Below, one piece after another: positions 22,124 through 22,352 of a stretch of DNA of 64,000 nt. This DNA comes from a virus (lineage: Duplodnaviria; Caudoviricetes): positions 1-64,000 of the IMG/VR virus record IMGVR_UViG_3300014208_000023. One strand, given 5' to 3'. The notes beneath the pieces are model-generated. The model searched no databases. It was given only the letters and a program-made list of their open reading frames with translations, and had not been told where the DNA came from. A program made the position numbers and the translations under genes. The stretch's first letter is position 1; each line of letters starts with the position of its first letter.

Positions 22124-22352
22124 TGGCGGGCCGGTAGGGACTCAAACCCTACATCGCATAGCATCAGCTGTGACTCTCTAATCTTTTTTTATGCAATACT
22201 TAATTCGGGGGTGGCTGCAAACTCAAGAAACTTTTTGCCCAATTGTTTGCGATCGACCGTCCGAATCTCCTATCACGATTAGTAATGGACAAGACACTAT
22301 TCACTACTCTACAATCATTGTCTCTACGGTGAGGTTGAATGATTGTCAGCCC
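22124..22352 (-). ncRNA. ~230-nt RNA with tRNA-like acceptor/T-arm and encoded CCA
   Basis: 5' GGGCTG pairs with CGGCCC-G-CCA; T-arm GTAGGG TTTGAGT CCCTAC; internal hairpins. Confidence 0.55.

Follow-up and report, generated by a model that had tools for sequence, protein, structure and literature searches.

A probable tRNA-ended non-coding RNA gene with a conserved insert beside the tmRNA gene of a megaphage

Introduction

Large phages carry islands of transfer RNAs (tRNAs), transfer-messenger RNA (tmRNA) and translation factors, and the purpose of these islands is debated between codon supply and the countering of attacks on translation. Among the tRNA-like phage RNAs that lack an anticodon, species 1 RNA of phage T4 (rnaC) is an expressed RNA whose function has yet to be established (PMC9697503), and a mini-tmRNA of mycobacteriophage DS6A, which consists of the tRNA-like domain (TLD) only, has been proposed to titrate SmpB (Hudson, Lau and Williams 2014, PMC4131195). 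Here we describe an element of 229 nucleotides (nt) on the minus strand of IMG/VR virus record IMGVR_UViG_3300014208_000023, a megaphage record of 428,320 bp with direct terminal repeats; the window analysed is its first 64 kb (64,000 nt), in which the element occupies positions 22124-22352. Our preferred reading, to which we give a rough probability of 0.55, is that the element is a genuine gene that encodes a stable non-coding phage RNA in a freshwater and wastewater megaphage lineage, in which a tRNA-type handle carries a conserved payload.

The element belongs to the known kind of anticodon-less tRNA-like phage RNAs and is a new variant within it, with T4 rnaC as its closest architecture. 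Like the element, rnaC and rnaD are small phage RNAs at a tRNA island, and rnaC (139 nt, at the end of the tRNA cluster), when folded here, has a canonical T-arm and an acceptor-like closing stem around two hairpins and no anticodon. Its closing stem is imperfect and it has no CCA end as annotated, whereas the longer element has a perfect stem and a GCCA end; our covariance model of the element (R1) finds nothing in the T4 locus that would indicate homology to rnaC or rnaD. The DS6A mini-tmRNA is likewise a tRNA-like module carried by a phage, and it too lacks an anticodon and any proven tag; unlike the element, it has no insert. The element has a conserved insert of 194 nt and no alanine identity features.

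Architecture of the element

RNA positions are given as 22353 minus the window coordinate. A second full-length variant is found on L037, a contig of wastewater sequencing run X4, and likeness to contigs of two further runs (X3, X25) is included below. The gene and its tRNA-like ends comprise the following features.

22124-22352, minus strand: whole tRNA-ended RNA gene, 229 nt, single copy; second variant at L037:1204-1432
22347-22352, minus strand: acceptor stem, 5' strand, RNA positions 1-6, GGGCUG (GGACUG in L037), pair probabilities 0.98-1.0
22128-22133, minus strand: acceptor stem, 3' strand, RNA positions 220-225, CGGCCC, pairs with GGGCUG at 22352-22347
22127, minus strand: discriminator G73, invariant in L037
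22124-22126, minus strand: encoded CCA, invariant in L037
22134-22152, minus strand: T-arm, RNA positions 201-219, GUAGGG/UUUGAGU/CCCUAC, 6-bp stem and 7-nt loop
22353-22360, minus strand: A/U-rich 8-nt leader AAAAAUAU just 5' of G1, where the likeness to the X3, X4 and X25 contigs begins

The 6 bp of the acceptor and the 6 bp of the T-arm add up to a stack of 12 bp, as do the 7 and 5 bp of tRNA, and enclose the 194-nt insert. The T-loop UUUGAGU keeps the equivalents of U54-A58 and G53-C61 and has U at the position of C56. Features of tRNA maturation in the sequence are these equivalents, U at position -1, G1-C72, the GCCA end and the 12-bp stack.

An earlier note on this DNA, made from its letters, had named the acceptor, T-arm, G discriminator and encoded CCA, and all of them lie where it placed them. 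The hairpins that it had singled out were borne out (ACAAUCAUU/AAUGAUUGU at RNA positions 7-15/34-42; GCAAAC/GUUUGC at 103-108/131-136), and both reading frames that it quoted are present in the insert, where frames end in ...QPPPN* and ...PELSIA*. It had reported neither a D-arm nor an anticodon arm, in agreement with ARAGORN (default settings and with introns allowed) and the Rfam tRNA and tmRNA models, which gave nothing; it had also seen no G3-U70 pair, and 3:70 is indeed G-C in the window and A-U in L037. Where it recognised no described family, a covariance-model search of Rfam 15 returned no match at E<=10 and the literature searched contained none that fits; T4 rnaC, the closest precedent in architecture, went unmentioned in it.

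Identity as a tRNA was rejected given the missing D-arm, the missing 7-nt anticodon loop and the lack of an Rfam tRNA or tRNA-Sec match at E<=10. An intron-containing tRNA-Ile, called by ARAGORN only at -ps80, has a mismatched acceptor and is unsupported by the L037 variant. A tRNA or tmRNA interrupted by a group I intron was also rejected: no Intron_gpI or other ribozyme model matched (E<=10), the T-loop is intact and no D or anticodon stems flank the insert, taken here as approximately 170-194 nt.

Covariation with a second copy

L037 was reached through a gene of 65 amino acids (aa) that lies between the tmRNA gene and the element. The order on this contig is tmRNA (114-515, 76.1 bits), 65-aa gene, a gene for a Cys-rich protein of 150 aa, and the element (1204-1432), which model R1 matches over its full length with 286.6 bits. 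Window and L037 differ at nine positions within the 229 nt; all nine are in the acceptor and T stems, and pairing is always kept. Four base pairs have double compensatory changes (3:223 from G-C to A-U, 202:218 from U-A to C-G, 204:216 and 205:215 from G-C to A-U) and one has a single-sided change (5:221 from G.U to A-U, G68>A). When nine random stem substitutions were simulated, all 12 pairs were kept in 30 of 300,000 trials. Pair 3:223 corresponds to 3:70 of tRNA, and the covariation of G3>A with C70>U places the 5'-strand positions 3-5 within the acceptor stem, with the 5' end predicted at 22352.

The T-loop, its closing G-C, G73 and CCA are invariant between the two copies, and over positions 4-201 all 198 sites agree. 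For the 65-aa gene the same comparison gives 89% identity (76% at third codon positions), for the gene downstream of the element far less than 89%, and for the two canonical tmRNAs 64%. This 64%, next to the 89% of the adjacent 65-aa gene, suggests a swap of the tmRNA gene through recombination. Comparison of the copies shows that the stems of the predicted 12-bp coaxial minihelix are maintained by compensatory change and that the insert is under strong purifying selection.

The covariation among homologues that the earlier note had proposed as a check thus supports the stems through the four double changes. The same note had set against its own reading the possibility of a T-arm and CCA left over from a decayed tRNA with an unconserved insert; instead, no part of the element is better conserved than the insert, and the two strands of the acceptor stem covary. 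Decay of a tRNA or tmRNA to a remnant, or the hitch-hiking of a mobile or recombination cassette, in either case without an RNA function, would fit the missing anticodon arm, the mosaic character of the region (tmRNA at 64% versus neighbouring genes at 89%) and the abrupt identity steps at positions 3/4 and 201/202. Such an explanation is extremely improbable, in our view, in the face of compensatory stem changes with an invariant T-loop and GCCA, which show selection on the fold, of an insert whose conservation exceeds that of the coding genes on either side (in at least two lineages), and of a search of the 428-kb genome that found one copy of the element and neither paralogues nor terminal repeats around it.

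Occurrence and conservation in public sequencing runs

Public sequencing runs were searched for the presence of the 31-mers of 256 nt around the element and, separately, of its 1.6-kb neighbourhood. With the 256-nt query, 12 runs had at least half of the 31-mers and four more had fractions of 0.43-0.48 (14 studies in all); these runs come from wastewater, sludge, freshwater, sediment, soil and groundwater. The 1.6-kb neighbourhood was complete only in the two samples that are its probable source, and other runs had approximately 5-12% of its words; for the runs rich in words of the element the figure is only about 9%. The word shares of 0.26-0.56 in runs X3, X6, X12, X15, X16, X18, X25 and X26 imply that these contain variants of the element. 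DNA of the megaphage is present in groundwater metagenomes, and relatives of the element in wastewater, lakes and soil. Among the runs listed for the 1.6-kb query none was an RNA run, and among those for the 256-nt query one was a metatranscriptome (X26, with 26% of the words); its contig of 151 nt spans positions 14-164 and is a weak hint of expression.

Run X3 represents a syntenic relative, with 98.5% identity in the element versus 93.5% and 88.4% in its flanks; parts left uncovered in the runs compared (X3, X4, X25 and X26) were not counted as evidence. The contigs of X4 and X25 become similar to the window abruptly, at 8 nt ahead of G1, and are unrelated to it further upstream, and X3 has 124 nt in place of 57 nt upstream of the element. 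The joint at 22360 has loose ends in three runs, and every replacement ends at exactly this point, 8 nt ahead of G1. Between the 65-aa gene and the element the phages have different cassettes (window 22361-22804 versus L037:745-1197), with open reading frames (ORFs) of 89 and 59 aa in the window and a single Cys-rich ORF of 150 aa (CxxC-type) in L037 and X25. These comparisons indicate that the element is under purifying selection, with the insert above the flanking coding genes in conservation in at least two lineages. The RNA gene is real, conserved and widespread, and neither Rfam 15 nor the literature searched lists it. As a side observation, both X3 contigs end in the T-arm/linker region (22125 and 22167), which may reflect strain polymorphism of the T-arm.

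Searches of reference collections gave no further homologue. Blastn against GenBank phages, in near and distant modes, returned chance matches of at most 38 nt only, and blastn of the element against E. coli genomes found no homologue. Exact-pattern scans of IMG/VR with different parts of the element and with the neighbouring proteins, and a scan of 185,579 species genomes, were equally negative; close records may be masked in the collections searched. A match to JGI metagenome contigs was rejected as chance: the hits were to a single bacterial locus, represented five times and situated ahead of an lpxC-like gene, with only 25-29 nt in common. The element is absent, by blastn and model R1, from the related megaphages G001-G005, which were found by TerL (49-65% identity). 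Descriptor scans for a minihelix plus CCA returned true tRNAs and tmRNAs and coincidences only, e.g. tRNA-Tyr in G001. Protein searches found no homologue of an antisense ORF and, for the 65-aa gene, only L037 and a relative at 46%.

Predicted fold of the insert

Consensus and minimum-free-energy folds both consist of the acceptor, two hairpins (H1, H2), a long arm (H3/H4), a linker and the T-arm, and the topology of this predicted fold resembles an overgrown class II cloverleaf.

22311-22346, minus strand: hairpin H1, RNA positions 7-42, 9-bp stem, 18-nt loop with an inner 3-bp helix
22281-22308, minus strand: hairpin H2, RNA positions 45-72, 7-bp stem, 14-nt loop, pair probabilities of approximately 0.8, invariant
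22193-22276, minus strand: long irregular arm H3/H4, RNA positions 77-160, pair probabilities of H3b and H4 0.91-1.0
22153-22192, minus strand: A-rich, weakly structured linker, RNA positions 161-200, low-probability hairpins only, invariant

H1 begins directly after the acceptor strand, at the site of a D-arm, has pair probabilities of 0.85-1.0 and a z-score of -3.4 against shuffles, and is invariant in both copies. The long arm contains the helices GAUUCGG/CCGAAUU (86-92/145-151) and GCAAAC/GUUUGC (103-108/131-136), has a basal helix with a probability of approximately 0.45, and includes a Shine-Dalgarno-like AGGAG at positions 82-86.

Relation to tmRNA

A canonical tmRNA gene lies approximately 660 nt upstream of the element on the same strand, and this arrangement is found in both phages.

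23012-23399, minus strand: canonical phage tmRNA, Rfam RF00023, 80.7 bits

Like a tmRNA, the element has an acceptor, a T-arm and a 3' CCA around a large insert and no anticodon arm, and it would be matured like a tRNA. The context UC-GCA-AAC in the insert resembles the resume region of E. coli tmRNA. Unlike a tmRNA, it has G-C or A-U at 3:70 and G73 in place of G3.U70 and A73, has U at T-loop position 56, and lacks P2, a D-loop analogue and predicted pseudoknots, and its short frames are doubtful as tags. Position 7 opens the local 9-bp hairpin H1, and in the thermodynamic prediction a D-loop analogue and a long-range P2 are absent; a candidate long-range pairing (100-105/195-200) has probability 0. 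Neither at the gathering score nor at E<=10 did the Rfam models for tmRNA, permuted tmRNA and mitochondrial tmRNA match the element, whether within 1.7 kb or on the isolated 248 nt.

ARAGORN calls a tmRNA only at the 70% threshold (-ps70), with 'Tag not identified'. In a control with the same ends and shuffled inserts, 27-42% of versions were called at this setting, and at -ps80 the native RNA is uncalled and 13-21% of the insert shuffles are called. Shuffled inserts are called equally often, and therefore the insert is no more tmRNA-like than random sequence; the relaxed call was rejected. The earlier note had placed a second tRNA mimic beside the tmRNA and had offered a tmRNA variant, charged with another amino acid and with a tag encoded in the insert, as one reading of it. 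The first part stands, in that the gene is genuine and conserved. The second is not supported: G3.U70 is missing from both copies, the discriminator is G73, there is neither a covariance-model signal nor a P2 helix, and no credible tag was identified. Its further suggestions of an SmpB/EF-Tu decoy and a synthetase sponge, like that of non-alanine charging, are speculative. By every defining feature testable here, the comparison indicates that the element is not a tmRNA.

We hold it to be quite unlikely that the element is nevertheless a non-canonical tmRNA, with non-alanine charging and an insert-encoded tag, or a tmRNA antagonist that titrates host SmpB or EF-Tu away from the tmRNA of host or phage. 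Its overall plan, the canonical tmRNA 660 nt away in both phages and short insert frames that end in UAA would suit such a role, and TLD-only molecules have been reported to inhibit tmRNA, possibly by SmpB titration (PMC4131195). Besides 3:70 and G73, which depart from tmRNA in both copies, the absence of any tmRNA-type model match even on the isolated 248 nt, the local hairpin where a D-loop analogue and P2 are expected, and an ARAGORN call no better than that of shuffled inserts, what stands against it is that the candidate tags end in PPPN or SIA versus the usual hydrophobic ...AA, that no synonymous-type variation is seen (two copies), and that no SmpB gene was found in the phage genome.

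Identity elements and other RNA families

Serine identity in bacteria is independent of the anticodon and is given by G73, C72, G2-C71, R4-Y69, C11-G24 and a large variable arm (PMC9976931, Table 1); among bacterial identity sets with G73, only that for Ser is anticodon-independent (PMC9976931). The element shares invariant G73, C72 and G2-C71 with tRNA-Ser, and a five-helix junction topology as in class II tRNAs is possible. In contrast to tRNA-Ser, its pair 4:69 is C-G and not R-Y, it has neither a D-arm with C11-G24 nor a 7-nt anticodon loop, and its 'variable arm' would be approximately 85-125 nt long and separated from the T-arm by approximately 40 weakly structured nt. The partial match to the Ser set is a lead for charging and not evidence. 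That a host synthetase which ignores the anticodon, with the Ser set the closest, aminoacylates the RNA, and that EF-Tu delivers it to ribosomes or the amino acid is donated elsewhere, we judge highly improbable. Should the RNA be charged, it would represent a new class of aminoacyl-RNA, and beside its canonical tmRNA the phage would have either a phage-specific, Ala-independent equivalent of tmRNA or an aminoacyl carrier of a new type. Neither AlaRS nor a class IIb synthetase core nor a reverse transcriptase was found in the phage genome.

YrlA and other Y RNAs are, like the element, tRNA-mimicking non-coding RNAs without a decoding role. The ends of Y RNAs form a Ro-binding stem, whereas those of the element form an acceptor stem with CCA; the element has no Rfam match, and a TROVE/Ro60 gene was not found in the phage genome.

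Proposed maturation and role

The element sits between ORFs of a minus-strand transcription unit, in a 250-nt gap that separates a 59-aa ORF from a 67-aa ORF. There is no sigma-70-like promoter immediately upstream of it and no terminator ahead of the next gene, and therefore the RNA is most likely cut from a longer transcript. The minihelix may be what the enzymes of tRNA maturation recognise: RNase P would cleave the longer transcript between U-1 and G1, and trimming or repair would leave CCA at the 3' end. The phage has a gene for a tRNA nucleotidyltransferase (G000:C1:233457-235136), which would be available for such repair. Maturation in this way would excise the RNA precisely and protect both of its ends. 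With lower confidence, the insert (H1, H2, the H3/H4 arm and the A-rich stretch) is the probable working part and might interact with some conserved component, of host or phage, that serves translation or RNA surveillance, in keeping with the location in an island of tRNAs, tmRNA and Pth2. By analogy, the element would work like T4 species 1 RNA or a natural 'tRNA scaffold' RNA, and not as a decoding tRNA or as a tmRNA.

Several points weigh against this reading. The RNA is known here from sequence alone, and its transcript ends, processing and stability are predicted. The single contig from an RNA library, that of X26, may be contaminating DNA. The insert as a whole is no more stable than shuffles (z = -0.47), and its helices H1-H4 are without covariation support, the insert being invariant across the two full-length copies compared. 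A search by complementarity for a target of the insert found nothing longer than 14 nt in the phage genome and no extended complementarity in E. coli genomes. Finally, identity between window and L037 falls from 100% to approximately 65-75% at position 201/202 and stays low into the downstream gene. A recombination breakpoint at 201/202 is likely and would weaken the argument of constraint for every base of the insert; the differences in the stems may then come from an allele that had diverged further, and G3>A would be their counterpart in the 5' strand. This caveat leaves the evidence for the fold unweakened. The full invariance of the insert in this one pair overstates its constraint because of the likely breakpoint; X3 and X26 differ by 1.5-2.6%.

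We regard it as unlikely that the element mimics a tRNA in order to divert host defence or toxin systems directed at the acceptor/T-arm end of tRNAs, or that it is a sponge for a tRNA-binding enzyme, with the tRNA-like end as the active part and the insert as spacer or stabiliser. Its location in the island and the invariance of the T-loop frame and GCCA while stem sequences drift are what a decoy would lead one to expect, but a decoy fails to explain 198 invariant nt alongside changing stems, no defence-related partner gene is linked to the element, and the cassette between tmRNA and element is swapped between phages.

A further alternative involves the gene that follows.

21914-22117, minus strand: downstream 67-aa gene, whose GGAGG ribosome-binding site starts approximately 10 nt past the CCA

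The element might act in cis as mRNA punctuation, in which the RNase P site divides the upstream message from the downstream one and sets the 5' end of the mRNA of the 67-aa gene, and the excised RNA is functionless. This would agree with a position between same-strand ORFs, with the lack of a terminator of its own and the next ribosome-binding site so close behind the CCA, and with the 67-aa gene, which adjoins the element in L037 and is present in X3 and X25 on separate short contigs. A 35-nt minihelix would suffice for this purpose, yet the 194-nt insert is the most conserved part. In addition, the 67-aa gene has a 63% homologue in related phages without the element (Logan contigs with this homologue have tRNAs and, by model R1, no element), and we find the punctuation role very unlikely.

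If the preferred reading of a stable RNA with a tRNA-type handle and a conserved payload is correct, the element adds a well-supported and environmentally widespread RNA to the translation toolkit of large phages, one that keeps only the enzyme-recognition half of a tRNA together with a long and highly conserved payload. It would be a second, independent example of the 50-year-old puzzle of T4 species 1 RNA, and a payload that binds ribosomes, rescue factors or a defence nuclease would constitute a new phage route to the manipulation of host translation. The predicted 5' RNase P site, the encoded CCA, the natural stem variants and the invariant payload are handles for experiments.

The phage genome and its tRNA genes

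TerL and portal of the megaphage are typical for tailed phages, and ARAGORN identified 16 tRNA genes in the 428-kb genome. The tmRNA at 23012-23399 is detected by Rfam and missed by ARAGORN at default settings, and its 3' end is ...CUCCA-CUA and not CCA. Only four of the 16 phage tRNAs have an encoded CCA. At least seven phage tRNAs and the tmRNA have C-U-A directly after the discriminator, a trailer that would need trimming and CCA addition (tRNA examples at window positions 4320-4393, 19189-19260 and 25058-25131, and at G000 370430, 371499, 404464 and 418351). Two paralogous genes reported by ARAGORN as 'tRNA-???' (G000:C1:371499-371569 and 371895-371967, minus strand) have a two-base anticodon (tc) and a shortened anticodon loop, and one of the two has an encoded CCA.

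A related megaphage, represented by two Logan contigs of 41 kb and 372 kb (L038 and L039), has a 20-kb translation island with eight tRNAs, including three tRNA-Met and two tRNA-Leu(UAA). The proteins of this island comprise a class I release factor (PCRF/RF-1), a ClpB-like ATPase, a TilS-like ATP_bind_3 protein, NUDIX, Dam and a Tad2-like protein, and several of its tRNAs are followed by gaps of 250-650 nt.
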